Source of the DNA: an uncultured Candidatus Saccharibacteria bacterium
Lineage (GTDB): Bacteria; Patescibacteriota; Minisyncoccia; Phycocordibacterales; JAKAEA01
Direction: 5' to 3'
Length of the DNA stretch: 64,000 bases
Assembly: GCA_964577595.1 (NCBI GenBank)
Contig: CAZNZK010000001.1
Coordinates: 1,434-65,433, forward strand
The stretch's first letter is position 1; each line of letters begins with the position of its first letter. The notes beneath the pieces were generated by a model, which searched no databases, was not told the DNA's origin, and worked only from the letters and a program-made list of their open reading frames with translations. Position numbers and translations under genes: made by a program. This document shows positions 5,407 to 58,694 of this stretch, one piece after another.

Positions 5407-5409
5407 CCG

Positions 5410-5428
5410 GGGTCAGGCACCGGTTAAT
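5410..5428. repeat. Half-copy of the GGGTCAGGCACCGGTTAAT repeat family
   Basis: It matches the first 19 nt of the 40-nt elements at 34063 and 34692 exactly. It lies 4 nt after the stop of the 4498 gene. Confidence 0.7.
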
Positions 5429-20586: not shown

Positions 20587-23500
20587 ATGTCATCCAAACC
20601 TTGGCTCCCTTGGACTATTTTTGCAGTGGCTATGTTTATCTTGGTTGGCATTGCCTACACCGGCATTGCCGTTCTTACACCTGCTCATACCACTCCCGCG
20701 GCAGTTATCACTGCTACCACCGCCGCTACCGCTACTCCTAAAGTTACTCCTTGCATTGGCGGCGCAAAATTTAATGTGATTACTGGCGCAGTTTGCCCCA
20801 ACGCGCCGGTTGTTCCTGCCTACACTTTTACTAAAGTTCTTGCTCCCGGTAGTGTTGGTCCTGCCGTGAAAGCGCTTCAACGACTGTTAAACAGTGATCC
20901 TGCCACGAGAATACTCGGTAAAGGCGCCGGCTCTCCCGGTAAGGAGTCAACTTATTATGGTCCTGGCACCATGTTGGCAGTGGGGAAGTTCCAATTAAAG
21001 TATCGGGCTCAAATCCTCACTTCCGTCGGGCTCAAGAAGCCTACCGGTATTGTTGGCGCTTCAACTATTAAACAACTCAACGCTGTGGAAGTCGCTATCG
21101 CGAGAGCTAAAATCTCCACGCTGGCCTCAACACTTACAACTTCTCTTGTTCCGTCTGCCCCTTTGGCCGGCGGTGTTGTCACTCAGAATCTCATTGGTGC
21201 TAATGTCGGTGGCGGGGGTTTTAGTAGCGGTGGAGGAGGTGGCGGGGGAGGTGGTTCTGGCGGTGGCGGCGGGTGTGTGGTTCCAACAATAACTTCATCA
21301 CTTTCTGCGAGTGGAAATACTGGTTCGAATTTTACTTACAACATAACTGCGAGTGGTGATCCAACCATAACCTATTCAACGGGCTCTTTGCCAGGCGGGT
21401 TGTCTTTGTCAGCGCAAACTATTTCTGGTACACCGGCAAGCGCCGGCACCCCGACGGTATCCATCACTGCCACAAACGGTTGTGGACATGATACCGAAAC
21501 ACTTTCACTCACAATTACAAGTGGTGGCGGTGGCTGTGTTTCGCCCGCAATTACCTCTTCTCTTACAGATTTTGCCACGCAAAACAGTGTTTATTCATAC
21601 ACGCTTTCGGCTGCTGGCACCGCGCCATTTACGTACACGGCTACCAATCTACCCTCTGGCGTCTCGTTCTCATCGCCGACCATTTCCGGCACGCCAACGG
21701 TGCTTGCCACAACAAACGTTTCTGTTTCTGCCACCAACGCTTGTGGTACTGACAACGAGACTCTTTCGCTCACGGTGAATCAGGCTGTGTCGTGGCAACA
21801 GAACGCTAGTGGTTTTACCGCCCTTGCTACAAGTTCCGACAGTCAGGTTATTTACGTGAGCAGTAGTAGCGGTAATGATTCAAATAATGGTCTCTCTCCT
21901 CAGGCTCCGGTGCAAACTCTTAATAAGGCACGTTCCCTGGTTCGTGACGGGTATCCCGATTGGATTTTGCTAAAGCGCGGCGACACTTTTAATTCCAGCG
22001 ACGGTGGTTCGCCCGGAGATAGCCCGTCTGTGCTTTTGCTTAACTGGGGCGGTCGGTCGGCATCGGAACCAACAGTCATTGGTGCCTACGGCACTGGTGC
22101 TCGGCCAATTCTCGATGCGTATGGAAATGCTGCGGCTATTGATATTGGTTCGCAAAATGTTAACCACATTGCCATTACCGGTCTTAATCTCACGTCTAGT
22201 CAAAGAAATCCCAATTCTCCAAACTACGCCGGAGACGGAAATGTTTCAGATAACAGTGAAGGAATATTGTGGTTAAGTTCTGCAGAAGGTGATACCGATT
22301 TACTTGTTGAAGACTGCGTCATGAGCTATTTTGATGATGCAGGCAACTTTAGTGGTTTTAACGGTGGTCGTTTAAGTAGCATTACTTTCCGACGTAATAT
22401 TGTTATGGACGACTACAATACCGGCGGCTCAGAAGGCGGCCACTCGCAGGGTGTGATTTTCGGCGGCGTTGACAATGTACTCATTGAACAGAATGTTTTT
22501 GACCATAATGGTTGGAATGAGCAGATTCCTGACGCCGGTGCCAATAGTTTTAATCAAGAGATTTATATTCAGCATGGCAATACTGGTGTTACGGTGCGGG
22601 AGAATATTATCGCTAATTCAGCTGGTGACGGTCTCCAATTGCGTTCTGGTGGCACTATGCAGGACAATATTTTTGCCGACGACCCACTCGCTGGTTTCGT
22701 AAGCGGTGGTGATGGCGCTGTCGCTGTTGATGTTCCTGTTGCCACCTCCATTATGACTGGTAACGTGGTGCTGAATGGCCTAGATATGCCAGGAGTGCTT
22801 GGCGGCCCTCGTGGCTGGGGCTTAGATGTGAATCCAAACTATGGCCCGAATCCCGTTACCGTGTTGGTAGACAATAACGTTCTTGCGCATAATACAGGAA
22901 CAGGATCTCACGGCACCTGGCTATTTAATGATATTCAGTCTCCAGAACTTGCCACTGGTATTTCCAATGTCACGGTCAGTAACAACACATATTACAACTG
23001 GTCTTCGCCATCTAACGATCTCATTATTGACCAGCCAACAGTTGGTACAAACACGCTTACCAATAATACCTTTGACGGCACAGGTTACAGTGACCCGGAT
23101 CGCACACTTGCTTCCTACAATGTAACACTCGGCGGCGCCAATTCCGACGATGCCTTTTTGGCCGCTGCAGAAAGTCGACCCACCGGCACCTGGAACGACA
23201 ACTATGGCGCCTTAGCAGCTATCAATTATGTTCGCGAGGGCTTTAATTTGTCTGATTTAGTGGCGCCGCCTTCAATATCTTTTTCTCCTGCTTCTGCTTC
23301 CGTGAATACCGGCAGTGGTACTACGCTCACGTGGTCTACTTCCGGCGCTTCCTCGTGTACGGCCAGCGGGGGTTGGTCGGGAAGCAAGGCCACTTCAGGC
23401 TCGCAAAGCACGGGCAATCTTACTAGCACTACCGCCTTTACTTTGACGTGTACGGGCACTGGCGGATCCTCCTCCGCCGGGGCAACGGTAACGGTGACTC

Positions 23501-24564
23501 AACCACTGGCCATAGACATTGCCGCTATAAGTGGAGTCGTCGTGCCATCAACAGGCGCCACGCCAACGGCAAGCATAAGCGCGACAAGTGAATACACGGC
23601 CGCTATTTCCTGGAGTCCCACCGACAATCCTTTTGCTGGGAGTACCGCGTACACTGCCACTATCACGTTAACTCCAAAATTCGGTTACACCGTAACCGGT
23701 ATTACGTCAAATTTCTTTACGGTATCTGGCGCCAGTAGTGTTACTAACTCTTCTAATTCAGGGGTTGTCACTGCAGTATTTCCTGCTACTCAAGCAGCCG
23801 CCAATCTCACGAACGGTTTGCTGGCCTACTACCCATTTGATGGTAGTGTGGCTGACACGAGCGGTAATGCCAATAACGGCACTGCAGTTGGTAGTCCCTC
23901 ATATATTACCGGTCAGCTCGGTCAAGCCATTTCTCTTGATGGTACAAGCCAGTATGTTGATACCGCCAATTATGCCGACAACCTTTCAAGTATTTCAGTC
24001 GCCGCTTGGATACAAGTGGGCACGGGTGTTTCAGGCTCATTCTTGCCAGTTGTATATAAAATGAGTAGTAGTGGTTCTTCTGGGATAGGGTGGGGTGTAA
24101 ATATTTTTCATACCCTTGGCAATTATGAAATTGGCTACTTACAACAACAAGATGGTTCAACATATAATGAATTTACCAGTCACGACGCTATTACTGATGA
24201 CGGTGGTTGGCATTTCATTGTGCTCACGCAAGGTGGTGGCCTCAATAGTGTTCCTGATATGTATATTGATGGCGCGAACGTTAGCATTGATGACCACGGT
24301 TCCACTAAAAATCTCACCACTACTTCCAACGCTCTCAATGTGCGAATCGGTGCCACTGGTAGCGGAGACAAGTTCTTCCCTGGCTCCATTGACGAGGTCC
24401 GTGTCTATAACAGAGCGCTGAATTCAGATGAAGTGTCGCAATTGTATAACCAAGGCCTGGCCTATTTCAAAACTCCCCAGCTTCAGCCTCAAACAGAAAT
24501 AGCTTCAGTGTGGCAAGCGGTGCAGGCCTGGATTAATGGATTGAAAAAACAATTCGGCTTGTAA
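20587..24564 (+). CDS. Giant (1325 aa) cell-surface protein: N-terminal signal anchor, PG_binding_1-like domain, Gly-rich linker, two Ig-like (cadherin-like) repeats, right-handed beta-helix region, further Ig-like segments, and a C-terminal concanavalin-A-like/LamG domain
   Basis: An N-terminal TM helix is present. The PG-binding motif is VKALQRLLNSDPATRILGKG...YYGPGTMLAVGKFQ. The tandem repeats are TITSSLSASGN...LSLTITSGGGGC and SPAITSSLTDF.... The beta-helix motifs include NHIAITGLNLTSS and NVFDHNGWNE. The C-terminal LamG motifs are LLAYYPFDGSVADTSGNANNG...IDEVRVYNRALNSDEVSQLY. Confidence 0.85.
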   Translation: MSSKPWLPWTIFAVAMFILVGIAYTGIAVLTPAHTTPAAVITATTAATATPKVTPCIGGAKFNVITGAVCPNAPVVPAYTFTKVLAPGSVGPAVKALQRLLNSDPATRILGKGAGSPGKESTYYGPGTMLAVGKFQLKYRAQILTSVGLKKPTGIVGASTIKQLNAVEVAIARAKISTLASTLTTSLVPSAPLAGGVVTQNLIGANVGGGGFSSGGGGGGGGGSGGGGGCVVPTITSSLSASGNTGSNFTYNITASGDPTITYSTGSLPGGLSLSAQTISGTPASAGTPTVSITATNGCGHDTETLSLTITSGGGGCVSPAITSSLTDFATQNSVYSYTLSAAGTAPFTYTATNLPSGVSFSSPTISGTPTVLATTNVSVSATNACGTDNETLSLTVNQAVSWQQNASGFTALATSSDSQVIYVSSSSGNDSNNGLSPQAPVQTLNKARSLVRDGYPDWILLKRGDTFNSSDGGSPGDSPSVLLLNWGGRSASEPTVIGAYGTGARPILDAYGNAAAIDIGSQNVNHIAITGLNLTSSQRNPNSPNYAGDGNVSDNSEGILWLSSAEGDTDLLVEDCVMSYFDDAGNFSGFNGGRLSSITFRRNIVMDDYNTGGSEGGHSQGVIFGGVDNVLIEQNVFDHNGWNEQIPDAGANSFNQEIYIQHGNTGVTVRENIIANSAGDGLQLRSGGTMQDNIFADDPLAGFVSGGDGAVAVDVPVATSIMTGNVVLNGLDMPGVLGGPRGWGLDVNPNYGPNPVTVLVDNNVLAHNTGTGSHGTWLFNDIQSPELATGISNVTVSNNTYYNWSSPSNDLIIDQPTVGTNTLTNNTFDGTGYSDPDRTLASYNVTLGGANSDDAFLAAAESRPTGTWNDNYGALAAINYVREGFNLSDLVAPPSISFSPASASVNTGSGTTLTWSTSGASSCTASGGWSGSKATSGSQSTGNLTSTTAFTLTCTGTGGSSSAGATVTVTQPLAIDIAAISGVVVPSTGATPTASISATSEYTAAISWSPTDNPFAGSTAYTATITLTPKFGYTVTGITSNFFTVSGASSVTNSSNSGVVTAVFPATQAAANLTNGLLAYYPFDGSVADTSGNANNGTAVGSPSYITGQLGQAISLDGTSQYVDTANYADNLSSISVAAWIQVGTGVSGSFLPVVYKMSSSGSSGIGWGVNIFHTLGNYEIGYLQQQDGSTYNEFTSHDAITDDGGWHFIVLTQGGGLNSVPDMYIDGANVSIDDHGSTKNLTTTSNALNVRIGATGSGDKFFPGSIDEVRVYNRALNSDEVSQLYNQGLAYFKTPQLQPQTEIASVWQAVQAWINGLKKQFGL

Positions 24565-31394: not shown

Positions 31395-33305
31395 ATGCCT
31401 CCCCAGTCCTCCTCGCATTCAAAATTTGTCATATTTGTGTTGTGTGTGGTGGCGATTCTTTTGGGCGTCGTCTTCTTTTTTATTCATCAGTATTCTTCCA
31501 AGTCAGCTACTGGTGCCAGTTTGGCTACGTCCGGTCAATCGGCACTTCTTTCGGCACAAACGCAAACGGCTGTTCTGCGATGTTTTGAAAATACTACCTC
31601 AGCCCAAGTGGGCCCAATCTGCACCACAGCCACCACTGATGCCGCCGCTGAAAATCCACTCTCCCGCACCGTTGTCATTTCCGATTCGGTAGTATCCGCC
31701 AATAATATAGGGAATACTCCGGTTGAAACCGCTAACAAGCCCTCTTCTGATATTTCCGTTGTGGCACAAAAGAATTCCGTTTCCACGCAAACCACGTCTG
31801 CAGACAAAAATCCATCTGCAAATGTATCCACCCCAATTGTACCTCCAGTAAATAGTACCAGTTCTTCATCACCGGCCGACCGAGCGCCAAGCCAGCAAAT
31901 CTATACCATCACAGCCACTGCCGATGCACACGGAACTATTTCGCCTCCGGGAACGGTTACCGTGAATGCTGGTTCTTCACAAACCTACGCTCTTATTCCC
32001 AATGTTGGCTACCAAATCAACACGGTTACGATTGATGGCTTTAGCGTCACTCCTGCTGGCACCTATGTTTTTGCCAAGATTGGCGCCAATCACGCCATTT
32101 CCGTGACGTTTATTTCTATGGTGGCATACATACCTTCTGGCACATCACCGAGTGACTTAGGTACTGATACAGGGTCGCCTACGACTCCTCCCTCGGGCCC
32201 TTCCTCCGGTACTCCTTCGTCTGGGTCTGGGGAGTCTTCATCTGATACGCCTCCATCTAATAACAATACTAGCCCGGCTGATTCTCCAGCGGTTTCTGCG
32301 TTCTCCATTACTGCTTCTTCAGGAACAAACGGTTCTATTTCTCCAAGCGGCACAACAATGGTTACTGCCGGCGATTTACAAACATATACTTTTACGCCAA
32401 ACAGCGGCTATCAGGTTAATTCTGTAACCATTGATGGCGTCAATCAGGGTGCTTTACCCGCGTACACATTTTTTAGCGTTATGACCAATCATGCCCTTTC
32501 TGTTACTTTTATTCCGGCGTCGCAATCATCTTCCAATCAACAATCAAGTTCTTCCGGCTCCTCAGGATCCGGAAGTTCATCGGCTGGTGGAGGAAGTGAT
32601 TCTTCTTCTGGAAACAATGATTCTTCTTCTGGAAATTCTGGCTCTGGTTCCGGCGGCGCGTCTGCCGGAGGTCTCATTGCCTATTATCCTCTTGATGGCA
32701 ATGGTCATGATGCAAGTGGTAATGGGTACGATGCCACGCTTATTCATTCACCTCTTTTTACTGCCGGTGAATTTGGCAGAGCGGTAGAATTTAGTACTGC
32801 CGGTGCAAAATACGTTCTCTTGCCCAGTATTCTCAATTATCCAGCAGTCGCCACTACCTCTTATGCCCTCACTGTTTCGCTCTGGTTTAAAAGTACTACG
32901 GGCGATTGTCCGCTTTATTATGAAGATAATACCGGTATTGCTGGCATCCGTCTCGGTACCGACGATAAAATCTACGCCAGCGTTTTTGATCATGGTTCCG
33001 GCACTGATGAGTTGGTGACCAGTGGCACGTATACCGATGGAAAGTGGCACCACGTTGTGGACACTTATGATGGTGGCACCGAAACACTTTATGTTGATGG
33101 TGAACTTGTTGGTAGTCAGAGTGGCGTCTCCGAGCTTGGTATTACTGGCGACCCGAGCGCTCGCCTTGGAATGGGTATCGTTTGCGGCTGGCCGCATGGT
33201 AGTTGCGCTTATCATTGGCTTGATAATGGTGCCATTGACGACGTGCGTTTTTACAACCGGGCGCTTTCCGCCGCGGAAGTTATGCAACTCTATCTTGGTA
33301 ATTAA
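31395..33305 (+). CDS. Secreted/anchored protein with two divergent InlB-B-repeat-like domains, a Ser/Gly-rich linker and a C-terminal concanavalin-A-like/LamG domain
   Basis: There is an N-terminal TM helix. The repeats are YTITATADAHGTISPPGTVTVNAGSSQTYALIPNVGYQINTVTIDG and FSITASSGTNGSISPSGTTMVTAGDLQTYTFTPNSGYQVNSVTIDG. The LamG motifs are LIAYYPLDGNGHDASGNGYDA...IDDVRFYNRALSAAEVMQLY. Confidence 0.8.
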   Translation: MPPQSSSHSKFVIFVLCVVAILLGVVFFFIHQYSSKSATGASLATSGQSALLSAQTQTAVLRCFENTTSAQVGPICTTATTDAAAENPLSRTVVISDSVVSANNIGNTPVETANKPSSDISVVAQKNSVSTQTTSADKNPSANVSTPIVPPVNSTSSSSPADRAPSQQIYTITATADAHGTISPPGTVTVNAGSSQTYALIPNVGYQINTVTIDGFSVTPAGTYVFAKIGANHAISVTFISMVAYIPSGTSPSDLGTDTGSPTTPPSGPSSGTPSSGSGESSSDTPPSNNNTSPADSPAVSAFSITASSGTNGSISPSGTTMVTAGDLQTYTFTPNSGYQVNSVTIDGVNQGALPAYTFFSVMTNHALSVTFIPASQSSSNQQSSSSGSSGSGSSSAGGGSDSSSGNNDSSSGNSGSGSGGASAGGLIAYYPLDGNGHDASGNGYDATLIHSPLFTAGEFGRAVEFSTAGAKYVLLPSILNYPAVATTSYALTVSLWFKSTTGDCPLYYEDNTGIAGIRLGTDDKIYASVFDHGSGTDELVTSGTYTDGKWHHVVDTYDGGTETLYVDGELVGSQSGVSELGITGDPSARLGMGIVCGWPHGSCAYHWLDNGAIDDVRFYNRALSAAEVMQLYLGN

Positions 33306-34034
33306 TTAGGGGCGAAGCAGGGTATCTATGGCCGCTTTGAGGTTGGAATAGGGGACTGCGCCGGAAGTAATTGGTACTTTTGCCGTAGCTGTCGTTAATA
33401 CAGTAAAGGGCGTTCCTTGGGCGCCACTAGCAAGGGCGTCGTTGTATTCCCCGGTGATTTTGGTGGCATACTTGTTGCTTTCTAGGCAGGTCGTGAAATT
33501 GGCCTGATTAAGGCCAATTTGGGCCGCCAGGACGGGTAATTGGCCGGGATCAAGGCCTTGGTAGTTGAGCGCAGTAAAGTCTTTCTTGCTAAAAAGGAGG
33601 TCTAAATAGGTCCAAAAAGCAGTGTTACCACCGAGCTCGGCGGCGCATTCGGTAGCCTGTGCCTCTTTTGGTGCTTTCGGGTGAAATGCAAAGTGGCGGT
33701 AGACCCAGGCTACTTGATTAGTGCCGCTCGGGCCGTAGGTCGCCATAATTTGCTCCATGGTTTTTTGAAATTGTTGGCAGTAGGGGCAGTCGGTGTCCGC
33801 GTATTCCACCACGATAACTGGCGCATCCAAACTGCCCTGGATGTGGTCGGCGGTAGTGACGGGTGGCAGGTTGGTAATGGCGGCCCCGTTGGCGGCATTA
33901 GGTGCGAGGGAAATGGAAGAGGTGTTGGGAGCTTGTTTGATATACACGATTGCTCCCGCTACGATGATGCCTGCTACCACGATAGCGGCCGATAGTACCC
34001 AGATGATTTTATTGGAAGACGAGGGGGAGTCCAT
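33306..34034 (-). CDS. Membrane-anchored DsbA-family thiol:disulfide oxidoreductase (thioredoxin fold, CPYC active site)
   Basis: There is an N-terminal TM helix. The active-site motif is EYADTDCPYCQQF. Confidence 0.8.
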   Translation of the reverse strand: MDSPSSSNKIIWVLSAAIVVAGIIVAGAIVYIKQAPNTSSISLAPNAANGAAITNLPPVTTADHIQGSLDAPVIVVEYADTDCPYCQQFQKTMEQIMATYGPSGTNQVAWVYRHFAFHPKAPKEAQATECAAELGGNTAFWTYLDLLFSKKDFTALNYQGLDPGQLPVLAAQIGLNQANFTTCLESNKYATKITGEYNDALASGAQGTPFTVLTTATAKVPITSGAVPYSNLKAAIDTLLRP

Positions 34035-34062
34035 ATACTATAGGATAGCATAAACTAGAAAC

Positions 34063-34102
34063 TAGGGTCAGGCACCGGTTAATAACCCGTGCCTGACCCT
34101 AG
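34063..34102. repeat. 40-nt near-perfect palindromic element, copy B (CTAGGGTCAGGCACCGGTTAATAACCCGTGCCTGACCCTAG)
   Basis: Read directly from the sequence. It lies 8 nt downstream of the exonuclease stop. Confidence 0.85.
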
Positions 34103-34110
34103 TACTTGGT

Positions 34111-34686
34111 TTAAAACGGCAAGGTGTGAGTCATGCTGGCATTGCCAAGCTCTTGCCAGCCGCTGGTATCAATAGCGATATCTACTTTTCGCGAGCCGTC
34201 TTTATAGTGGAGCTTGCCTTTTTTGAGCGCGTATTCGTAAAGCTCTTTGGTGAGACGGACATCTTCTAGGCAGTATTTCTTTACTTTTTCAATCTCGCCA
34301 TTTTTCCACCATACCAGTGCTTGGAGGCCGTGGCCCGATTTATTTTGACCAAGCGTGCCTTCGGCTATTTGATCAAGTTTTAGGCGGCGGCCGAGTGTTT
34401 TCTTGATTTCCGCGAGCAGGTCAATACTTTTTATTTTACTTAAATCGCCCGGGTAATATTTATTTAAAAGAGGAATGTCAAAATAGTCACTGTTGTAGCC
34501 TATGAGCACATCGGCGGCCTCAAATATAGGCCACAATTGAGGTAATTCTTCCTGTAGATAGGCACGATATGTGTCGGTGGCAGAGTCATAGACACCGACC
34601 ACGGAAATATCCAAATCAGTCGGGTCATTACTGCCGACATCTTGAAAAAGATTTCTAGTTTCAATATCAAATACAATAAAGCGCAT
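34111..34686 (-). CDS. DEDD-family 3'-5' exonuclease (RNase H-like fold)
   Basis: Motif I is FDIETRN. Motif II is GYNSDYFDIPLL. Motif III is YCLEDVRLTKELY. The ATG at 34686 is preferred. The GTG extension to 34704 in the ORF track would translate the repeat element as PDPPP. Confidence 0.75.
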   Translation of the reverse strand: MRFIVFDIETRNLFQDVGSNDPTDLDISVVGVYDSATDTYRAYLQEELPQLWPIFEAADVLIGYNSDYFDIPLLNKYYPGDLSKIKSIDLLAEIKKTLGRRLKLDQIAEGTLGQNKSGHGLQALVWWKNGEIEKVKKYCLEDVRLTKELYEYALKKGKLHYKDGSRKVDIAIDTSGWQELGNASMTHTLPF

Positions 34687-34691
34687 GGGGG

Positions 34692-34731
34692 GAGGGTCAG
34701 GCACGGGTTATTAACCGGTGCCTGACCCTAG
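34692..34731. repeat. 40-nt palindromic element, copy C; it is the reverse complement of copy B at 39 of 40 positions
   Basis: Read directly from the sequence. It lies 5 nt upstream of the exonuclease ATG on the minus strand. Confidence 0.85.
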
Positions 34732-34832
34732 TTTACAATAGTTTCGGACTATCGCAATTATCCACAGGTTGTGCGTATTGCTTTTACTGCCAGTCGGCGG
34801 TATTCTGTAGTGAACAATCATTTACTTATCTC

Positions 34833-35498
34833 ATGAAAAAAATATTCACGCAATCGGTTTATAACGCTTTAGTGACCAGTGTCTGCTCGTCGCTTGTTAT
34901 CGCGAGCGTGTATGTTGCCTTTGAACCGCTTTTTGCGCAGGGCGCGACGTCTCAAACGGTTACAGTCACCCTTAACGTGACGAGCGGCGTGGCGGTGACG
35001 GTTGATTCTAATGCTATCAACATGAGCACCAACTTGAGTGTTACGCAAAATACCGCAGTTGCCACTTCTACCTTTACCGTTTCCACCAACGACAACATTG
35101 GCTACACGTTCCAGTTGGCAGCAAGCACTAATTCGGCTATGCAATCGGGTGGTAATAAAATCGCTGATTTTCCTACTACAACACCGCAAACATGGACGAG
35201 CGGTATCGGAAACCCCGATGCACGTTTCGGTTTTTCGGTTATCGGCAGTGACTTAGCTGGTCCTGCGAGTTGGTGGGGTAGCGGTAGTTATTGTAATGGT
35301 GCTAGCACTAGCACAATTTCCACGACACTTAAATATTTTGGTTTTTACACCACCGCTACTACCACGTCAAAAAATTCCAGCACAACTACTCCTTCCGGTG
35401 ACACCACTATCGTTTGCTACGCAGTTAATCAAAATAATACCTACATCCCGAGCGGCACCTACACGGCAAGCATAACAGGCACGGCTATTGCCAACTAG
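34833..35498 (+). CDS. Secreted Thr/Ser-rich protein, paralog of the 36549 gene
   Basis: There is a signal peptide. Motifs shared with 36549..37325 are GY.FQL..ST, FGFS, a Cys pair, and C-terminal GTYTASITGTAIA. Confidence 0.7.
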   Translation: MKKIFTQSVYNALVTSVCSSLVIASVYVAFEPLFAQGATSQTVTVTLNVTSGVAVTVDSNAINMSTNLSVTQNTAVATSTFTVSTNDNIGYTFQLAASTNSAMQSGGNKIADFPTTTPQTWTSGIGNPDARFGFSVIGSDLAGPASWWGSGSYCNGASTSTISTTLKYFGFYTTATTTSKNSSTTTPSGDTTIVCYAVNQNNTYIPSGTYTASITGTAIAN

Positions 35499-35539
35499 TG
35501 CGCATTGCCATTTTTGCTCGCAGGGTGTAAATTTTCTCC

Positions 35540-36541
35540 ATGAACATGATTTCATCACGCAGGGCGCTCTCGGCTCTAATTCTCTTTATTAGTGTTGCTT
35601 TTTGCGTACTTCCCACAGTTACGGCTGCCGCGCCAGCCGGCGCAGGTCCATACCACATAGACGGGCTCTCTGTGGAAAGTCGTGGCGATTTTGTGTTGGA
35701 GCCAGCTAAACAAGAGACGTTCCTCAATCCTGGTGACACTGTCACGGAAATCATTTATGTAACCGACCGTGTCCGAGGTACTACTACGTTTAGTATTGGT
35801 ATCCAGGATTTCAAGGGTACTAATGACCCTAATGCGCCCGTGGCGATAGTTCCTCCAGGCCAAAGCGGTCCCGATTCGGGTAAGGATTTTCTCAGCGTGC
35901 CGGCTTCAGAGCTCACTCTTTCTTTTGGTCAGCGGGCCACGATTCCAGTTACGGTTACTGTCCCTAAAGATGCTTCGCCGGGCGGCTATTACGCGGCCGT
36001 CCTTATTTCCAATGAGCCAACGGTGGTGGCTACTAGCTCTACTTCAGTTACCGGTGCTACTCGCGTTATCTCGCGTCTTGGCACTCTCTTTTTCATTCGG
36101 GTTAATGGTCCCGCCAATCCGCAAGGCCAATTGCAGGATTTTCGCATTAATGCACCCACAAGCCGAGCGATTTACAACAGCGGGCCATTCACTTTTGAAA
36201 TGCTTTTCAATAACACCGGCAACCTCTACCTCACGCCTTACGGCACTATTACTATTAAGAATTTTCTCGGTTCAACTATTGCCACCGTGCCGGTGGATGC
36301 CTATTATTCTTTACCACAATCATTGCGCTATCGCGATGTAAGTTGGAATCAATTTGCCTTGTTTGGCCGATATACTGCCACACTCCAGCTTAATCGCAGT
36401 TACGGCGGCACTACTGACACCAAAACCATCGCCTTCTGGGTTATTCCGTGGGAGTTTCTGTTAACCGCTTTTGCTATCCTTTTTGTTGTAATCTTCGGCG
36501 TGATTTTCTTCCTGCGAACCTTTGAAGTGCGGCGAAAGTAA
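35540..36541 (+). CDS. Secreted protein with a cleavable signal peptide and a C-terminal TM anchor followed by RRK
   Basis: The signal peptide is ...VTAAAPAGAG. The C-terminus is FAILFVVIFGVIFFLRTFEVRRK. The architecture resembles DUF916/DUF3324-type cell-surface proteins, but this is inference. Confidence 0.7.
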   Translation: MNMISSRRALSALILFISVAFCVLPTVTAAAPAGAGPYHIDGLSVESRGDFVLEPAKQETFLNPGDTVTEIIYVTDRVRGTTTFSIGIQDFKGTNDPNAPVAIVPPGQSGPDSGKDFLSVPASELTLSFGQRATIPVTVTVPKDASPGGYYAAVLISNEPTVVATSSTSVTGATRVISRLGTLFFIRVNGPANPQGQLQDFRINAPTSRAIYNSGPFTFEMLFNNTGNLYLTPYGTITIKNFLGSTIATVPVDAYYSLPQSLRYRDVSWNQFALFGRYTATLQLNRSYGGTTDTKTIAFWVIPWEFLLTAFAILFVVIFGVIFFLRTFEVRRK

Positions 36542-36548
36542 TTAAACT

Positions 36549-37325
36549 ATGAAGCAGTTTTTGTTCGCGTTCATGGCAATGACGGTGGCGATGATGCTTG
36601 TGTGTATCGCGCGTTTTTTTGTGCCTGTCGCGGTCAGGGCCGCCATGCAAAGCTCAAAGTATGCCATTCCAACCGACAGTATTAATTTCGGTGGCGGCGA
36701 CAGCACCAGCACTAATTTTAGCGAAGAAGACACACTCGGCGAAGTGGGAAGTGGTTTGGGAACAAGCACCAAGTACTCACTCAACGCAGGTTACCAGCAA
36801 ATTTCCGGTTCCAGTATTTCTTTGACGTCAGCGGCCAATGTCACTTTGCCGGCTATTGGCGGTCTTAATTCCGGCACAACTATGGCCAGCTCAACCTGGA
36901 ACGTCACGACCGATGACGCGGCGGGCTATCAGCTTAGTATTCTTTCTGCCACAGCACCCGCTTTGGTAACGCCAGCCCATGCCTATTTCGGCGATTATGC
37001 GCCGAGTGGCGGGGTAGGCTCGGCCGACTTTACTTTCGCAGTAGGTAGCGGCGCTTCCACATTCGGCTTTTCTCCAGAAGGGCCCGACATCGTCAGTCGT
37101 TTTAAAGATACTGGTTCATCCTGTGGCACTGGTTCCAGCGACACGCCCATGGCCTGCTGGGCCGGCTTTACCACCACCAGCCAAACCATCGCCGCCGGTA
37201 GTGGCTACAATTTACCCGCTGGCGCTTCTACCACGGTTGAATATGAGGCTGGCATCGGTTCCAATAAAATTCAAGACGCGGGGACGTATACTGCCACGCT
37301 CACAGTCACCGCTGTCGCGCTGTAA
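36549..37325 (+). CDS. Secreted Ser/Thr/Gly-rich protein, paralog of the 34833 gene
   Basis: There is a signal peptide. The C-terminal motif is GTYTATLTVTAVAL. Confidence 0.7.
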   Translation: MKQFLFAFMAMTVAMMLVCIARFFVPVAVRAAMQSSKYAIPTDSINFGGGDSTSTNFSEEDTLGEVGSGLGTSTKYSLNAGYQQISGSSISLTSAANVTLPAIGGLNSGTTMASSTWNVTTDDAAGYQLSILSATAPALVTPAHAYFGDYAPSGGVGSADFTFAVGSGASTFGFSPEGPDIVSRFKDTGSSCGTGSSDTPMACWAGFTTTSQTIAAGSGYNLPAGASTTVEYEAGIGSNKIQDAGTYTATLTVTAVAL

Positions 37326-37351
37326 GCGCGACAATTTGTTATGATACGGTT

Positions 37352-38500
37352 ATGAAATACCGTTTTTCTGCTTTCTCTTTTTGTGTAGTTGTTTTTGTTT
37401 TTTGCACGCCCCCTCACGTATTTGCCGCTACTGCTCAAAGCGTGTGCGTTAGTTTGTCGGTAGGTAGTACTACCGACGCGGGTGACAATTGCTCGCCGCC
37501 GGTAGCCACGTCCACACCAACCACCACACCAACCACCACGCCGGCAACACCGCCCAGTCCATCAACCGTCACCTCGCCAAGCGCGCTTGCTGGCCCGGCA
37601 ATCATCCCCAACGTTAGTGACATCACTGTGGGCTACCAGGGCAATTCGGTGGTTATCAATTGGCATAATCCAACCGACGCGGCACATTTTTCTGGCGTGC
37701 GCATCGTGCGCTCGTCCTACACCGTGCCGCTCGATCAGTTTTCTGGGAAGGTCGTGTATCAAGGTTCCGGCACGTACGCGCTTGATACGGGTGGCATTCC
37801 CGGCACGGTCTATTACTACACCGCTTTCAGTTATGACGCGGTGGGGAATTATTCCTCAGGCGCTGTCTTTTTTGCCGTCTGGCCGAGCGTCGCCCTGCCG
37901 GTAGTGCCGCAATCGCCTAATCAAACTCAAAATCAATTTCCGGTGCAGTCAGTTTTTCCGCCGCTCTTTCCGCAGACAACAAGCTCGTCGTCGCCGCTGT
38001 TACCAAGCACGGGGGGTCGGCAGCTAATTTTTTCGCTAACAGATATCTCATTCATTCAGGACGGTCGCGTGCTTCTTTTAGCGAATAGCACAATTACAGC
38101 CGACGGCACCATGCCGCTCGTTGTGGCAGTTGCCGACAGTGCTGTCGCTAGAAAAATTTCCGGTGGTTTAGCACGGGCAATGATCGCGATAAATATTCTT
38201 GGTCATGAAAGTGCCTATTTGTTGCGCGAGAGCGCGGCCGACCAGGCTTCAGAAGCTCGTCTGGACTTAACAACGGTGCCAGCCGGCGGTTATCCTTTTG
38301 TGGTGGAATTTTGGCCGAATAGGGGAGAGCCTTTCGCCGTTTCCGGTACTCTTGTGGTTACTGGTTCGTCCACTTCAACTGGTATTTTAGGTACTGGTAT
38401 AAGCTTCGCTCAGCTAGGGAAGTTACTCATCTTGCTTGCCCTATTTTCCATTTTTATTTTACTCATTCATCGCGCCCGCCGTCACCAAAACCAGGGCTAA
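37352..38500 (+). CDS. Surface protein with a signal peptide, TPTTTPTTTP linker, fibronectin-III-like domain and a C-terminal TM anchor
   Basis: The Fn3-like segment is GYQGNSVVINWHNPTDAAHFSGVRIVRSSYTVP...GTVYYYTAFSYDAVGN. The C-terminus is LLILLALFSIFILLIHRARRHQ. Confidence 0.7.
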   Translation: MKYRFSAFSFCVVVFVFCTPPHVFAATAQSVCVSLSVGSTTDAGDNCSPPVATSTPTTTPTTTPATPPSPSTVTSPSALAGPAIIPNVSDITVGYQGNSVVINWHNPTDAAHFSGVRIVRSSYTVPLDQFSGKVVYQGSGTYALDTGGIPGTVYYYTAFSYDAVGNYSSGAVFFAVWPSVALPVVPQSPNQTQNQFPVQSVFPPLFPQTTSSSSPLLPSTGGRQLIFSLTDISFIQDGRVLLLANSTITADGTMPLVVAVADSAVARKISGGLARAMIAINILGHESAYLLRESAADQASEARLDLTTVPAGGYPFVVEFWPNRGEPFAVSGTLVVTGSSTSTGILGTGISFAQLGKLLILLALFSIFILLIHRARRHQNQG

Positions 38501-38597
38501 GTCTCGTTAGCAACAATTCAAAAAACACCCCCATATAGTTAGCCATATTTTTGCTGGCTTTTCCCCACGTACCTGGGGATTTCCTGTGTTTATGTCA

Positions 38598-38667
38598 CCT
38601 CGGCTAAGGTATAATTAGCCTTATAAATAAAGGTTTTTTCCTTGCCGAGGTACCTCGGCAAGCCGAG
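38598..38667 (+). promoter_or_regulatory. Promoter and operator region: TATAAT at 38610-38615; perfect 22-bp palindrome CTTGCCGAGGTACCTCGGCAAG at 38641-38662; extra half-sites CCTCGGC at 38598 and GCCGAG at 38662
   Basis: Read directly from the sequence. It is located between the -10 box and the ATG of the HTH gene. Confidence 0.55.
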
Positions 38668-38679
38668 AAAGCCAACGAA

Positions 38680-39108
38680 ATGGAAATTTTGCAAGATTTT
38701 ATTACGGCAGGTCAGGCGGCGAAGCTCGCTGGCTATAACCCTGATTACGTCAGTCAGCTCATTCGCGCCGGAAAAATTCGCGGAAAAAAAGTCGGTAAAA
38801 ACTGGGTAACAACCCGCCATGAATTAAGCCGCTACATACAAGTAGTAGGTGGTAAGCCTTTGCCGATTATTGGCTCCGGTCAGTCGGGTAGCCGCCGTCG
38901 CAATTGGCGCGGCCGTTTCGTGAGCCCGCTGTTTGTCATTGTGGCCGCTTTCATCGCGGGCTTTTTGGCCTTGGTCGGTTTCGGTGTGTATGCGTCCATT
39001 TACAACCAGGCTTTGAGTTCTGCACAAAACGGCTCACAGGCTTCTTCTACGATGACTGGATCAACGGCCGCCGCGGGCAACATTGTCACTAGCTTGCCGC
39101 AGCTATAA
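38680..39108 (+). CDS. Membrane-anchored helix-turn-helix protein (excisionase/MerR-like HTH_17-type N-terminal domain plus one TM helix)
   Basis: The HTH region is ITAGQAAKLAGYNPDYVSQLIRAGKIRGKKVGKNWV. The TM helix is FVSPLFVIVAAFIAGFLALVGFGVYA. Confidence 0.7.
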   Translation: MEILQDFITAGQAAKLAGYNPDYVSQLIRAGKIRGKKVGKNWVTTRHELSRYIQVVGGKPLPIIGSGQSGSRRRNWRGRFVSPLFVIVAAFIAGFLALVGFGVYASIYNQALSSAQNGSQASSTMTGSTAAAGNIVTSLPQL

Positions 39109-39113
39109 AAATC

Positions 39114-42100
39114 ATGTTCTCCCGCAACAACCAACCGAACAAGATTTTCAAAACAACACTCGTGGTGTTGGCGGTGCTTGTTGCGGCCGTAACCCTTTCC
39201 CTCGCCAGCTTCTTCACGGTTGCTCGCGCCGCTATCAACCCGGAAATTAATTACCAAGGCAAACTCACCACTAACACCGGCACGCTCGTTCCGAACGGTT
39301 CCTACAACGTTGAATTCAAACTCTACACCAACACCGGCACGAACATTTGGACGGAAGATGATCTTGTTTTCAACAGTCAGGGCGTTAGCATTACTAGCGG
39401 GCTTTTCAGCATTATGCTCGGCTCCACCACCGCGTTCACCGGCGTCAACTGGAATCAGACACTCTACCTCGGCGTCAATATCGGTAGCACCACTACCAGC
39501 CCCACCTGGGACGGCGAAATGACGCCGCGCAAAATTCTCGGCACTGTGCCAGCTGCATTTGTGGCACAAACACTTAATGGTCTTTCTTCCAGCGAATTCA
39601 TGCGTTCCGATGCTACCAACTCCACTTCCACCGCGAGCACATTCTTCTCCGTAACCCAAAGCGGTGCCGGTGACATTGCGGATTTTATTGGTCAAAACAG
39701 CGCGCCGGTGCTTTACCTCCAGTCCGGCGGCAGTGTTGGCATCGGCACCTCGTCGCCCTGGACTGCGCTTTCCGTGAAAGGCGCCAGTGACCTCGGTAAT
39801 TTTGCTCAAGCCGGCTACTTCGTTGGCACCACTACCGCAACATCAACCCTCGCTGGGGGCTTGCAAGCACTCGCGCTTAACATCACTTCTTCCACGGCTA
39901 GTTCCACATTTGGTAACGGTATCAATTTAGCGAAAGGTTGCTTCTCAGTCGCTGGTACTTGTCTTACTCAGTCTGCCAACTACTGGACTTCTGCTGGCGG
40001 CAACATCTACAACAACACCGGCACCAATGTTGGCATCGGCACCACTACACCGAATTGGAATTTGCAGGTAGCAGGCCAGAGCCCGGTGATCGCCCTCACC
40101 GACACTGGCGCGCCCGCTAATCAACAACACTGGTTCCTGGAAAGTCAGAATGGGGGATTCACTATTGGCACGAGTAGTAATAATCTCTCAGCCACCACCA
40201 CGTATTTGCGTTTTGACAATACAGCCAGCCGCAACAACACAGCTGTTGGCTTCACCGCGCTTTCGGCGGTGACCACCGGTTCGGCCAACGTTGCTCTCGG
40301 TTATCAGGCGGGTCAAGCTGTCACTGGTGCTTTTGATCAGACGCTTGTGGGTTATCAAGCTGGTTACAACACCACCAATAACACTAGTCAGCAGAATACT
40401 TTCCTTGGCTATCAGTCAGGTTTCAATAACACGACGGGTGCTTACAACACGGCTGTTGGCTCTGCCGCTTTTGCCGCCGGTTCCACTGGCAGTTACAACG
40501 TCCTTGTCGGCGCCAGCGCCGGCTACGGTTTTGCTACGTCTGGCTCCAATTCAAATAACGTCATTATCGGCTACAACGCTGTCGGCGGCGCGGCCGCGGC
40601 TTCCACGGGTAACGATACCGTTGTCGGTTATCAAGCTGGTTATACTCTCAATGGCGGCAACAACAACACGTTGTATGGTTTTCAAACTGGATACGGCCTT
40701 TCAAGCGGCGCGAATAATATTTTCCTTGGCTATCAAACCGCTTCCACCACAAGTAGTGGTTCCAATAATATTGCCATCGGGTATAACATTAATTTACCGA
40801 GCGTTAATGGTTCCAATCAATTAAATATTGGCAATATTTTGTACGGTACAGGGTTGACTGGCTCCCTCACCACTTCTGCTGGCGCCATTGGTGTCGGCAC
40901 GAGTAGCCCATGGGCAACACTTTCTGTGCAGGGTCCGGCGCAAAGCACGAGCCCTCTTTTTGCCATCGGCTCCACCACGAACGCAACTCTCTTCGCTATT
41001 CTGGCTAACGGCTTTGTCGGCATCGGCACGAGCACGCCGGCCAGCGAATTAGCGGTGAGCGGCAATGTTTCCATAAAAGAAACCGCAAATAACAACAACT
41101 GGCTTACGCTTTACAACGCTATTGGTAGCACCACTGGCATTATTCGCGAAAATAGCGGCTCTGGCTCCGGTGGCATTTCAATCCAAGGATTCCGTTCCGG
41201 TGGCAATGGTCAGGCCTTGGCTTTTTACGGCAAAGTACTCAAAGATGACGGCACTGAAGTAGCCGGATCTCTGTTTGATGTTATGCAAGGCACTACGGCT
41301 GTCGGCACTACTGGCAACAATGTCACCAACACCCCGATTGCCGCATTTTGTAATAATTACGAAGGCGGTCTCTTCAGTGCCACCACCACCTGTAAAGTTA
41401 TCTTCAGTGCCGCTGGCAACGTCGGCATCGGCACCACCTCGCCCTGGACTACGCTCTCCGTCAACGGCTCAAGTGACCTCGGCAACTTCGCCCAAGCTGG
41501 CTACTTCATTGGCACCACTACAGCAACGTCAACTCTCGCTGGTGGCTTGCAAGCACTCGCGCTCAACATTACCTCAACAACCGCGAGCTCAACCTTTGCC
41601 AACGGCATCAACCTCGCCAAAGGTTGCTACGCTATCGGTGGTAGTTGTTTGAACGTCAACAACTTCTGGACATCGCTCAGCGGCAATATCTACAACAACA
41701 CCGGCACTAACGTTGGTATTGGTACTAGCACACCGAATGCCTCGCTCTTTGTCACCACGGCTGGTCAGCAAAACGGTAGCTCGCCGCTCTTTACTGTGGC
41801 TTCTACCACTGGCGCCTCACTTTTCACCGTGCTTGCCAACGGCAATGTTGGCGTTGGCACCAGCTCTCCATATGGCGCGCTCGGTATGAATGGCACGGTA
41901 GATGCCACGGCCTTCATCGGTAATGGCGCTGGCCTCACGCAGCTTACCGCCGCTGGCTCGTTGGGCGGTATACAATTTAATGACACCCTCATTCTTAATT
42001 CGGACACTATCAACCAGCCGGGTATTAATGACTCTAGTTACAACGTCACTTCTTTTGTTGTTGCGCACGGTTCCCGCTTCAGTATTGGTAACATAGTTAA

Positions 42101-45100
42101 GCAAGAAGCCAGTACTCCAGAATTAATGCTGGTTACGGCCGTTAGTGGCAACACACTCACGGTCTTCAGGAATTATCCAACGGGAGCTTACCCAACGGGT
42201 CGCTCCCAGCTCCTGAATAACGAAGTGTTGGATATCGTCGCACTTAATCAATTTAATTCCGATGCTACGCTTACGTGGGATAATATCAATAAGCGCTTGG
42301 GCGTTGGCACGACCACATTTAGTGGTAACACCATTTTGGCTATCGGCGGTGTAGCGGCCAATAACAATATTGGTTTGAGTCTGGAGGATGGAGGTGTCTC
42401 ACAAGGGTCACTCGTGCTTGATAACACTGATCAGGTTCTGCTTAGTGCTACGAACGGCTCAGGTTACAACAACATTATTCTTAGCGGTGCGAATATTACT
42501 CTGAATGGAGGCCTCAATTCTGCCACCCTTGATCAAAACGGCACCTTTAATGTCGGCGACCTAGTTGACGGTGGCCAAATCACCGTTGGCGGTGCTACGG
42601 GTGTTGGCGCAACGCTTACCGCAACCGAATTAACTTTGGGGGTTGACGATACAATTACTGCGAATGCTGGCTTTGATGGGGGGCTACTCTTTAATAACGA
42701 CAATACTACTGGTTATCAGTGGGAGTCTAATAATCTTTCCATCGCCACACTTGGTTCTACCGGCAATCTTGCCGCCTCTGGCACCATCGCCGTGCAGGGC
42801 ACTGGCACGAGCACGTTTGCTGGCGGCCTCGCCGCAAACATTTTTAACGCTACTTCTGCGACCGCAAGTTCCACCTTTGCCAACGGCATCAACTTAAAGA
42901 ATGGTTGCTACGCCATCAGTGGCGCTTGTATCGGCACCGGCGCGGCAACACTCACTGGCGGCGTGGCTGGCGCGCTCACGTATTGGACGGGTTCTGGCAC
43001 TGTGGGCGCCACCACATCGCCAACGTTTAATGCTTTCTATGCCACCTCAACCACGGCCACCTCCACCATCGCTGGTGCCCTCACTATTGGCTCGACCAAT
43101 ACCAACATCTACCCCAACGCGCCACTTATTCTGACAGGCAACGTCAATAATGCCAGCCAGTTTGTAATGCAAAATTTGAGCAATGGCAGCAATGCCTCGG
43201 CCGATTTGATCGTGGGTGCTGACCTCATGAACAACAGCTCGTATTACGGCGACCTTGGTTACAACAGCTCTGCTAACACTGCTAGCGCGTACACTGGCTT
43301 TGCCGCTAACGACCTCTATCTCTATTCCAGTGACAGTAATCTTGACTTGGCCGCCGCAAGCACTACCGGCCCCGCCAGTATCAACTTCCTCACGGGCGGC
43401 ACTTTGGCGGCGAATGTCCGCATGACCATTGGCAATACCGGTAACGTCGGCATCGGCACTACGAGCCCCTACGCCCGCCTCTCTGTGTGGGGAGCAAACG
43501 CTCTTTCCGGCAGTAATCTTTTCCTGCTTGCCAACAATGCTTCAACGACACTCTTCGCGGTTGATGGCGCCGGCAACGTAAACATTCCTGTGGCGACTGC
43601 CACCACCACTATCGCTGGCGGCTTTGATGTCGGCAACGGCTCGCTCCACTATGAATCGTCCACCGGTCAAACTAATATCAGCAATCTCCAGATAGGGGCT
43701 CTTTCATTCCCGAGCGATTCCGGTGTGCTCACTTGGGCCGACATGCCGGTGACCACGGCTTCAGCCATGGGCACGCTGGAAAGTTACAGTGCTAACATTG
43801 ATGGTAGTGTTCTTTTGACAATTGCGGCGCAGGCAGATGGCTTGGGCGGTATCCAAAACGCCGGTATCGGTATCGGTACGACGAGCCCGATGGCCACCTT
43901 AGCCGTTCAGGGGTTGACCGGTACCACAACGCCGTATCTTTTTGCCGTTGCTAGTTCCACGGGGCAAACATACTTAACTATTGATAATAACGGCACTACT
44001 ACAATTCGGGGAAACTTGGTTGTCTACGGTAATATCGTTCCAGGAAACACGGATACGTATAGTCTTGGTACGGCTTCTTCTACGACGGAATGGAAGAGTT
44101 TGTACGTGGCAACCTCAACGATTTATTTGGGTGGGACGGCCGTAAGTATCAGTAATGGTAGTTTGCTCGTGGGCGGTAATCCGGTGACTGGCGGCGGAGC
44201 CACCACTGAGAAATGGGCAACATCTACCGATCTCACCTCTATATATACCAATACCGCCACCAAAATTGGCATCGGCACGTCGTCGCCTTGGGCAACCCTA
44301 TCCATCACCGGTTCTTCCGATCTTGGTAACTTTGCTCAGGCTGGATACTTCACAGCAACAAGCACGACTGGCACTAGCTATTTCGCGGGCAAGGTTGGTG
44401 TTGCTTCCAGTACTCCTTACGCGAATCTCTCCGTTTCCAGTCTTTCTCAACAAGTTGGCACTTTGCCGCTCTTCCAGGTTGGTAGCACCACTAACGCTTC
44501 GCTCTTTAATGTTCTTGGCAACGGCAATGTCGGCATTGGCACCACTTCACCGTATTCATTCCTTTCAATTCAGACGCCATCCAGTTTTGCCGGTCAGATT
44601 ATTGATATCTCCACCAGTGCTGGCGCGTCACTTCTCCATCTAACGAACGCTGGTAATCTTGGCCTTGGCACCACTTCGCCGTGGAGCACCTTCTCCGTCA
44701 AAGGCTCTTCCGACCTCGGCAACTCCGCTTTGGCCGGCTACTTCACGGGCACCAGCACAGCAACCAGCACGTTCACCGGTGGCCTCGCCGCAAACATCTT
44801 CAACGCTACTTCTGCGACCGCCTCTTCCACCTTCGCCAACGGCATCAACCTTACGAACGGTTGCTACGCCATTGCGGGCACTTGTTCCACTATTGGTTCC
44901 GGCTCTGCTGGCTGGTTGTCATATTACGCCGGTACTGGCCAGGCGCTTACCGCCACCTCTTCCATCTTCCTTGCTACTAGCGGCAACGTTGGTGTCGGTT
45001 CTACCACGCCCTATGCCACGCTTTCCGTTTCCACCCCTGGCCAACAAATTGGCACCCTGCCGCTCTTCCAGGTCGCCTCAACCACCAAGGCCGCCATCTT

Positions 45101-58691: not shown

Positions 58692-58694
58692 TTT

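Follow-up and report, generated by a model that had tools for sequence, protein, structure and literature searches.

Within the window, a 64,000-nt stretch of DNA from an uncultured, ultra-small bacterium of the Parcubacteria, a short exonuclease gene (exo) is flanked by two inverted copies of a 41-nt palindrome, and we lean towards reading these copies, here called B and C, as low-copy, lineage-specific, non-coding selfish repeats of a REP/REPIN-like or minimal MITE-like type. This is a known kind of repeat (REP/MITE type), found here in a phylum, the Patescibacteria (CPR), in which such repeats do not appear to have been described. The features on which the analysis turns are the following, in window coordinates.

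5410-5428, plus strand: singlet A, one repeat unit, GGGTCAGGCACCGGTTAAT
33306-34034, minus strand: dsbA-like thioredoxin-fold gene (Pfam); in three relatives it follows exo within one operon
34059-34100: left arm of a perfect 42-nt inverted repeat, including the asymmetric outer flank AAACTAG
34062-34102: palindrome copy B, 41 nt, in the exo-dsbA spacer, within a 53-nt insertion (~34053-34105) relative to the relatives
34111-34686, minus strand: exo, 191-aa DEDDy 3'-5' exonuclease (RNase_H_2 / PolB-exo-like), assigned from Pfam, structural model and motifs
34691-34731: palindrome copy C, inverted relative to B, a 32-33-nt insertion in the ancestral hisS-exo spacer
34693-34734: right arm of the perfect 42-nt inverted repeat, including the outer flank CTAGTTT
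34730-34757, minus strand: putative exo promoter, with a -35 element TTGCGA at 34752-34757, a 16-nt spacer and a -10 element TAAACT at 34730-34735
34737-34766, minus strand: hisS deletion scar as read from alignment, the TGTGGATAA box fused directly to a ~20-nt hisS 3' remnant
46667-46685, minus strand: singlet D, one repeat unit, GGGTCAGGCACCGGTTTAT

An earlier note had described two 40-nt, nearly identical palindromic copies in opposite orientation, tightly bracketing the exonuclease coding sequence. Both parts of this description hold, with the element extended to 41 nt and its arms fully complementary over 42 nt. The 41-mer CTAGGGTCAGGCACCGGTTAATAACCCGTGCCTGACCCTAG is copy B on the plus strand; copy C, on the minus strand, matches it with two mismatches, both at the gene-facing end, and no recurrence of the 41-mer was seen in 100 dinucleotide shuffles. 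A repeat search returned the arms of B and C as 42 nt long, 100% complementary and 592 nt apart, and the identity between the copies runs 3 nt past the outer limits drawn earlier, taking in the AAA before CTAG, and falls short of the inner limits by 2 nt. The exo stop codon (TAA, 34111-34113) is separated from copy B by 8 nt, and the ATG (34684-34686) from copy C by 4-5 nt. Each copy is itself a near-perfect palindrome, and its core (35 nt in B, 34065-34099) is an inverted doublet, with one 16-nt unit on each side of a central AAT (16 + 3 + 16 nt). The RNA folding check proposed in the earlier note was run: as RNA, the 41-mers of B and C form strong hairpins of -28.5 to -33.8 kcal/mol with z-scores of -6.1 to -7.8 in their 86-nt contexts, by far the strongest in the window. 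Copy C is unchanged in an independent JGI metagenome contig from the same species (99.98% identity over 11.3 kb), and the JGI protein P0254, a member of the same 90% cluster as exo, starts with VPDPPPM, which is the translated palindrome arm; the bracketing arrangement is therefore not an assembly artefact.

The palindromes are built from a smaller repeat that also occurs alone. The basic unit is 16-19 nt long, GGGTCAGGCACCGGTT(A/T)AT, and B and C are head-to-head inverted doublets of GGGTCAGGCACSGGTT. The 16-mer GGGTCAGGCACCGGTT is found at four loci in 80.5 kb of sequence from this species, namely B, C and the singlets A and D; the window itself belongs to a 250-kb contig of an ENA metagenome assembly. 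The 11-mer core of the unit has six occurrences, counting the two arms each of B and C, against 0.9 expected, and the unit is the most repeated 14-mer of the window. Searching with the 19-mer at up to 4 mismatches gives 6 sites, compared with 0-1 in shuffles; allowing these four mismatches gains no further site, and the ~16.5 kb of extra same-species sequence beyond the window on either side holds no further unit copy. The singlets are half-copies that did not figure in the earlier note.

Singlet A follows TAACCGG and forms with it a 7-bp hairpin (5404-5426) in which the unit arm is the loop. This hairpin and the stop codon of a PG_binding_1 gene (4498-5406) share sequence, and the convergent intergenic region around them already holds a canonical terminator; a second assembly (L022) has the identical site. 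Singlet D lies just past the stop of a gene for a 2508-aa protein and ~30 nt into a Gly-rich ORF (46640-47701), where it contributes signal-peptide-like codons (INRCLTP); a protein search with this ORF gave distant, low-complexity matches only. The possibility that the 12-kb block from C to D had been inverted was rejected, the gene order and orientation being the same in relatives. The copies share no common setting: A falls between convergent genes, B in a spacer within an operon, C between the putative promoter and the ATG, and D at the 5' end of an ORF. This variety of positions argues against one dedicated regulatory role.

The label of DEDD exonuclease given to the bracketed gene is well founded. 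Its product matches Pfam RNase_H_2 (PF13482) at 7.6e-11, with weaker matches to PolB-exo and PolA-exo, and an AlphaFold model built with 26 homologues has a mean pLDDT of 92; among PDB folds, this model best matches proofreading exonuclease domains, namely those of family B and T7 DNA polymerases. Residues D7, E9, N65, F69, D70, Y138 and D142 are invariant in the 26 homologues, and the protein carries the ExoI DxE, ExoII Nx3FD and ExoIII Yx3D motifs in what the model predicts to be an RNase H-like fold. A search of 5.8 billion proteins returned 7789 exo homologues; the best 120 of these share 64-83% identity and are nearly all ~191 aa long, and the named organisms among the best 120 are Parcubacteria/Patescibacteria (Kaiserbacteria, Paceibacteria, Campbellbacteria). 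Judged by these homologues, exo is an ancient, vertically inherited core gene of the Parcubacteria, neither cargo nor part of a mobile unit.

The gene order in relatives bears directly on how the palindromes arrived. In the closest relatives, a divergent 224-aa-class gene is followed by hisS, exo and dsbA on one strand; exo is 81% identical to its counterparts in L008-L010, 83% in L011 and 77% in L012-L013. In five other genomes hisS lies directly upstream of exo, in three of those dsbA follows exo, and one of the five is the distant L024, whose hisS is 58% identical to that of L008. The relatives' spacers are short (24-36 nt for exo-dsbA and 2-15 nt for hisS-exo) and align across the insertion points, and the 10-mer GGTCAGGCAC is found in no relative locus. 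At the site of copy C, L011 has the empty sequence GTACACTAGG^CTCCC-ATG (the caret marks the insertion point), and the window has GTAAACTAGG, 32-33 nt and then CTCCCCCC-ATG; at the site of copy B, L011 and L008 have TTTTA(G/A)(A/T)CCAA^TATGGTAT, and the window has TTTTAAACCAA, 53 nt and then TATGCTAT. Because the closest relatives (77-83%) have short spacers without the palindrome, B and C are, on these alignments, lineage-specific insertions relative to the relatives' empty sites. No target-site duplication is present at B or C (L011 empty sites GTACACTAGG^CTCCC and TTTTAGACCAA^TATGG).

These comparisons refute, on the criterion set in the earlier note, the proposal that exo is a mobilisable gene cassette, as relatives carry the gene in the same hisS-exo-dsbA context without flanking copies. 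The alternative raised with it, a MITE- or REP-like insertion, is favoured by the empty sites in relatives and by the occurrence of the unit as singlets at unrelated gene boundaries. Moreover, the operon spacers measure only 2-36 nt, so that an element landing in either of them abuts coding sequence.

The sequence around copy B points to where it came from. The 53-nt insert consists of a 33-nt core with GTACTAG on one side and CTAGTTTCTAGTT, which includes AAACTAG, on the other, so the CTAG on either side of B arrived with the insert. The sequence left of copy C (GTAAACTAG) recurs in variant form in the two flanks, which match the ancestral hisS-exo spacer of L011 (GTACACTAGG). The sequence left of C is ancestral at that place: L011 and L008 have it without the palindrome. 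Because this flank sequence is ancestral only at the upstream site, B was probably copied from a C-type locus along with a few flank bases. We propose that one doublet would have inserted in the hisS-exo spacer, between the -10-like box and the exo ATG, and that a copy of it with 7-9 nt of flank would later have been placed, inverted, into the exo-dsbA spacer. One candidate agent for these steps would be a single-strand transposase of the HUH/RAYT type that acts in trans; the other would be hairpin-mediated template switching or gene conversion.

The upstream side of the locus has also lost a gene. No hisS is present in the window (tblastn), and the protein database contains, beyond the known relatives, no orthologue above 65% identity that would be the species' own hisS. 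The protein P0174 was rejected as the relocated hisS of the species because it belongs to another genome, and no relocated hisS flanked by the palindromic unit was found in the protein database search. The hisS-promoter box TGTGGATAA, invariant upstream of hisS in four genomes, still stands at 34758-34766 in the window; if the palindrome core is taken out, the ~35 nt that follow can be aligned with the final ~25 nt of hisS plus the L011 hisS-exo spacer. As the promoter box is kept and a hisS 3' remnant aligns beyond it, hisS has, from this alignment, been lost by a ~1.2-kb deletion. The deletion junction lies 25-30 nt from palindrome C and contains no repeat unit. A precise replacement of the hisS ORF by the palindrome was ruled out by the hisS 3' remnant and the ancestral spacer that lie between the junction and the palindrome.

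To characterize the likely effect of the insertions on expression, we compared the signals around exo with those of relatives. The exo ATG of L008 and L011 is preceded at 8-9 nt by a TACACT box, and L008, L011 and L012, the closest relatives, have no Shine-Dalgarno sequence before exo; the sequences of the relatives suggest a leaderless exo message made from an internal promoter. The equivalent box in the window is TAAACT, the -10 element of the putative exo promoter, which was read by eye and scores below the promoter-scan threshold. Copy C lies between this putative -10 element and the exo ATG. The exo message would now start in or at palindrome C and carry a 5' stem-loop whose end is 6 nt from an ATG that has no Shine-Dalgarno sequence, and the hairpin left from the putative start site onward still has ~-16 kcal/mol. 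The claim that the upstream copy replaces any promoter or ribosome-binding site is thus only partly borne out: no Shine-Dalgarno sequence is present, but the relatives also lack one, and a plausible promoter, TTGCGA-16-TAAACT, stands immediately upstream. On the other side of the gene, copy B places a hairpin of ~-34 kcal/mol between exo and dsbA. The suggestion that the copies are terminators is not supported in the sense of a classical intrinsic terminator, since no U-tract follows either hairpin (tails UAGUUUCUAG for B and CCCCCCAUG for C) and neither copy was called as a Rho-independent terminator by the terminator scan. Copy C also overlaps a sigma-70-like match (TTAACC-17-TACAAT) that is directed towards the 34833 gene.

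REP hairpins in operons of E. coli and other enterobacteria stabilise upstream mRNA and modulate read-through. By analogy, the stem-loops at the 5' leader and 3' end of exo would be expected to stabilise the exo segment of the mRNA and partly to uncouple exo from dsbA, and the 5' stem-loop would be expected to hinder initiation on the formerly leaderless exo message.

The palindromes resemble two families of bacterial repeats and differ from both in detail. REPs and REPINs are short hairpin-forming units of which inverted doublets replicate and singlets occur (Bertels & Rainey 2011, PMC3116915). The elements described here share with them the short, mostly extragenic hairpin form (A, B and C are extragenic, D is inside an ORF), the presence of inverted doublets (B, C) alongside singlets (A, D), the location near gene ends and within operons, the absence of target duplication and the restriction to one lineage. 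In contrast to the hundreds of copies typical of REPs, only four loci are found here in ~80 kb, and a RAYT gene is absent from the same ~80 kb. Furthermore, classical REPs have GTAG at the foot of the stem, where B and C have CTAG, A has CCGG and D has ATGG; the two units of a doublet overlap centrally, leaving essentially no spacer; the location of singlet D inside an ORF is unusual for REPs; and the host has a roughly 1-Mb-class Parcubacteria genome. Like MITEs such as Correia/NEMIS, the elements are small and non-autonomous, consist essentially of two terminal inverted repeats, and lie in intergenic spacers beside gene starts and stops where they are able to alter transcripts; unlike typical MITEs of ~100-400 nt, they measure 35-41 nt, have no target-site duplication and have no parent IS among the sequences searched. 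It also speaks against the REP/MITE reading that the 'family' has few members (four loci in ~80 kb). Two full copies around one 0.6-kb gene are also unlikely to arise by random insertion (~2 in 60 intergenic gaps), so that some local, non-random process is needed.

Searches for a mobilising enzyme and for the motif elsewhere were negative within their scope. The statement that no transposase or integrase is encoded nearby holds for the ~80 kb examined, which also contains no recombinase domain; the genes of this ~80 kb include no RAYT (Y1/HUH) and no IS200/IS605 transposase, and no parent IS with matching ends was found there. The 19-mer and the full palindrome gave only chance-level, isolated matches in unrelated organisms among GTDB representative genomes, JGI metagenome contigs and IMG/VR, and blastn of the region against plasmids and phages gave chance-level matches at most. 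These motif negatives are weak and the collections incomplete, because the metagenome scan did not return the JGI contig known to carry copy C. Two motif matches were examined and set aside, that in L016 as coding sequence for a RidA-like SGQAPVN motif and that in L019 as an unrelated high-GC hairpin. Rfam contained no matching family, giving only sub-threshold miRNA-hairpin noise; a literature search for the repeat sequence returned irrelevant primers and motifs only, and another yielded no account of REP- or MITE-type repeats from Patescibacteria. An association with a replication terminus, dif or Ter sites was rejected as well: the GC-skew turn at ~34 kb reverses at ~47 kb, and gene orientation does not fit. 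A link to an EcoO109I-like restriction-modification system was dismissed because the element has no RGGNCCY site.

The geometry of the locus recalls site-specific recombination, in which genes move together with short sites. In Acinetobacter dif modules, genes are bracketed by inverted pdif XerC/XerD sites (PMC6449649, PMC13141974), and the likeness lies in a single small gene placed between inverted, short, imperfect palindromes with no recombinase encoded nearby; likewise, integron cassettes are promoter-poor ORFs bordered by imperfect palindromes. One explanation would accordingly make the palindromes core sites of a trans-acting recombinase (an Xer-like tyrosine or a serine enzyme), each with two inverted 14-16-nt arms around an asymmetric TTAATAA centre in the manner of the Acinetobacter modules, so that the exo segment could be inverted or excised and hisS might have left in the same way. 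The full palindromes with their asymmetric centres, the inverted copies set tightly around one gene, the identity of B and C over 42 nt and the absence of hisS right beside copy C are all in its favour, and yet we consider it very improbable. Both dif modules and integrons need the gene to travel with its sites, a requirement contradicted here: dif modules carry accessory genes that move with their sites among plasmid contexts, whereas exo belongs to the chromosomal core and keeps its ancestral place and orientation, with hisS and dsbA as neighbours in relatives in which the sites are absent. The hisS junction, with its TGTGGATAA box and hisS 3' remnant, is ~25-30 nt off the palindrome and contains no unit, no hisS flanked by the element was recovered elsewhere, no recombinase is encoded in ~80 kb, and singlets A and D would be half-sites without a partner. 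The architecture differs too, a 28-bp 11-6-11 Xer site being compared with a 35-nt palindrome of 11-nt outer arms and a 13-nt centre or, on another division, of 14-nt arms and a 7-nt centre; as for integron cassettes, Pfam shows no integrase and the sequence no GTTRRRY core, the copies lie inverted instead of co-oriented, and the gene is not cargo. A broader version, in which the palindromes would form a dif-module-like chromosomal system of Parcubacteria whose trans-acting recombinase excises, inverts and reinserts single genes, with hisS already gone and exo the next gene bracketed, seems less credible still; if true, streamlined CPR genomes would have a means of shuffling core genes that has not been described before.

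Two further explanations dispense with selfish DNA or with mobility, and each appears unlikely, though less so than recombination. The hairpins could be selected regulatory RNA or DNA structures, 5' leader and 3' stem-loops that would stabilise or insulate the exo mRNA or dampen read-through into dsbA; or they could be operator sites through which a dimeric repressor controls exo, dsbA and the divergent 34833 gene. Stems of ~-29 to -34 kcal/mol are very stable and lie exactly at the exo transcript boundaries, exo needs expression signals of its own after the loss of hisS, the sigma-70-like TTAACC-17-TACAAT sequence overlaps copy C towards the 34833 gene, and operon REP hairpins in E. coli have an established stabilising role. 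On the other hand, relatives run the same genes without these structures, the lack of a U-tract is at odds with a classical terminator, a hairpin 6 nt before an ATG without Shine-Dalgarno sequence should hinder translation, and singlets A and D are at promoterless sites, one in a gap that already has a canonical terminator and the other inside an ORF. For protein-binding or insulator sites, which the earlier note had also raised, we found no positive evidence, and we regard such roles as a lesser possibility. Alternatively, the palindromes may never have been mobile: local template switching or hairpin-primed repair, perhaps tied to the rearrangement that removed hisS, would have produced them, and gene conversion would have homogenised B and C, an account to which we likewise give a low probability. 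It fits the ancestral flank of C on both sides of B, which is better matched by fold-back copying than by clean transposition, as well as the perfect 42-nt identity that includes flank sequence, the proximity of the copies to the 1.2-kb deletion, and the absence of a target-site duplication and of a transposase. A local origin nevertheless leaves unexplained why the 16-19-nt unit is also present 29 kb and 12 kb away, at two distant loci that are unrelated.

On the REP/REPIN-like or minimal MITE-like reading, the interest of the locus lies in its host and its geometry. CPR genomes are thought to be streamlined and repeat-poor, and palindromes of the REP/MITE type are apparently undescribed there. 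The clean empty sites in sister genomes suggest that a core gene, probably leaderless, received the element between its promoter and its start codon and that the element was then copied across the gene, which would make the locus a compact natural example of selfish hairpins rewiring operon structure. The practical value is limited to a species-level marker and to the caution that bracketing by inverted repeats does not by itself signal a mobile cassette. The loss of hisS from the widely conserved hisS-exo operon is perhaps the more useful lead, both for gene order and for aminoacyl-tRNA synthetase replacement in CPR.

Gene-order comparison places hisS directly 5′ of the DEDDy 3′-5′ exonuclease gene in five other Parcubacteria genomes, and at this locus a conserved TGTGGATAA promoter box is joined to a ~20-nt leftover of the hisS 3′ end. 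The junction was read against three related-genome loci that lack the palindromes:

34737-34766 (- strand): hisS deletion scar, versus L008 8700-9985, L011 7440-8704 and L012 8660-9998

In this genome, hisS has thus been lost from the exonuclease locus by deletion. The protein database contains no orthologous hisS from this species; therefore, either a divergent copy elsewhere took over or the gene was missed in assembly.

The start of the exonuclease lies close to copy C, the palindrome on its ATG side. A GTG within the right arm of this copy is in frame with the gene and opens a 197-aa ORF (VPDPPPM..., window 34704-34686, - strand), and it is this GTG-started form that the JGI gene call adopts (P0254). 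Since close relatives do not have the six additional N-terminal residues, the true start is likely the ATG, giving 191 aa. From this species there is also an independent JGI contig (L026, Ga0265338_10002149), which begins inside the gene. Its position 1 corresponds to window 34192, leaving 90 nt to the inner end of copy B, the palindrome at the gene's other end. This contig end disagrees with what a simple inversion polymorphism predicts; coverage or strain heterogeneity could account for its position near inverted repeats.

The exonuclease/palindrome locus is surrounded by four large proteins:

20587-24564: large Laminin_G_3 (concanavalin-like) protein
31395-33305: large Laminin_G_3 protein
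48323-50533: large Laminin_G_3 protein
39114-46640: 2508-aa protein lacking any Pfam domain

Across the block 34833-46640 the + strand shows negative GC skew, which sets it apart from the flanking DNA; relatives keep the same gene order in this block. At its end, the 2508-aa gene's stop overlaps (TAATG) the start codon of a further ORF:

46640-47701: Gly-rich ORF with a signal-peptide-like N-terminus

Singlet D, a single repeat unit, falls within codons 10-16 (INRCLTP) of this ORF, whose gene call is uncertain because the exact protein was not found in the database.

An 11-nt stem, GTCAGGCACCG/CGGTGCCTGAC, is common to the exonuclease-flanking palindromic element and an intergenic group of overlapping hairpins on an unrelated high-GC contig (L019 7195-7260, Ga0070705_100002680), which came up solely through a shared 19-mer. 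The match exceeds pure chance in length, and the likeness of the two stems is probably convergent.

Other gene clusters lie in and near the window, including a type II restriction-modification pair (840-2504) and, just upstream of the window, a small ORF followed by a HigB/YafQ-like toxin gene (7336-7894 in L022, a second assembly of the species):

840-1739: N6_N4 DNA methyltransferase
1743-2504: EcoO109I-family endonuclease
57393-59666: cytochrome bd oxidase subunits I and II (cydAB)

Beside cydAB lie the genes for BacA, for a second DsbA-like protein and for MsrA/MsrB. Together these resemble a cluster for oxygen handling or oxidative stress, a feature of note in a CPR organism.
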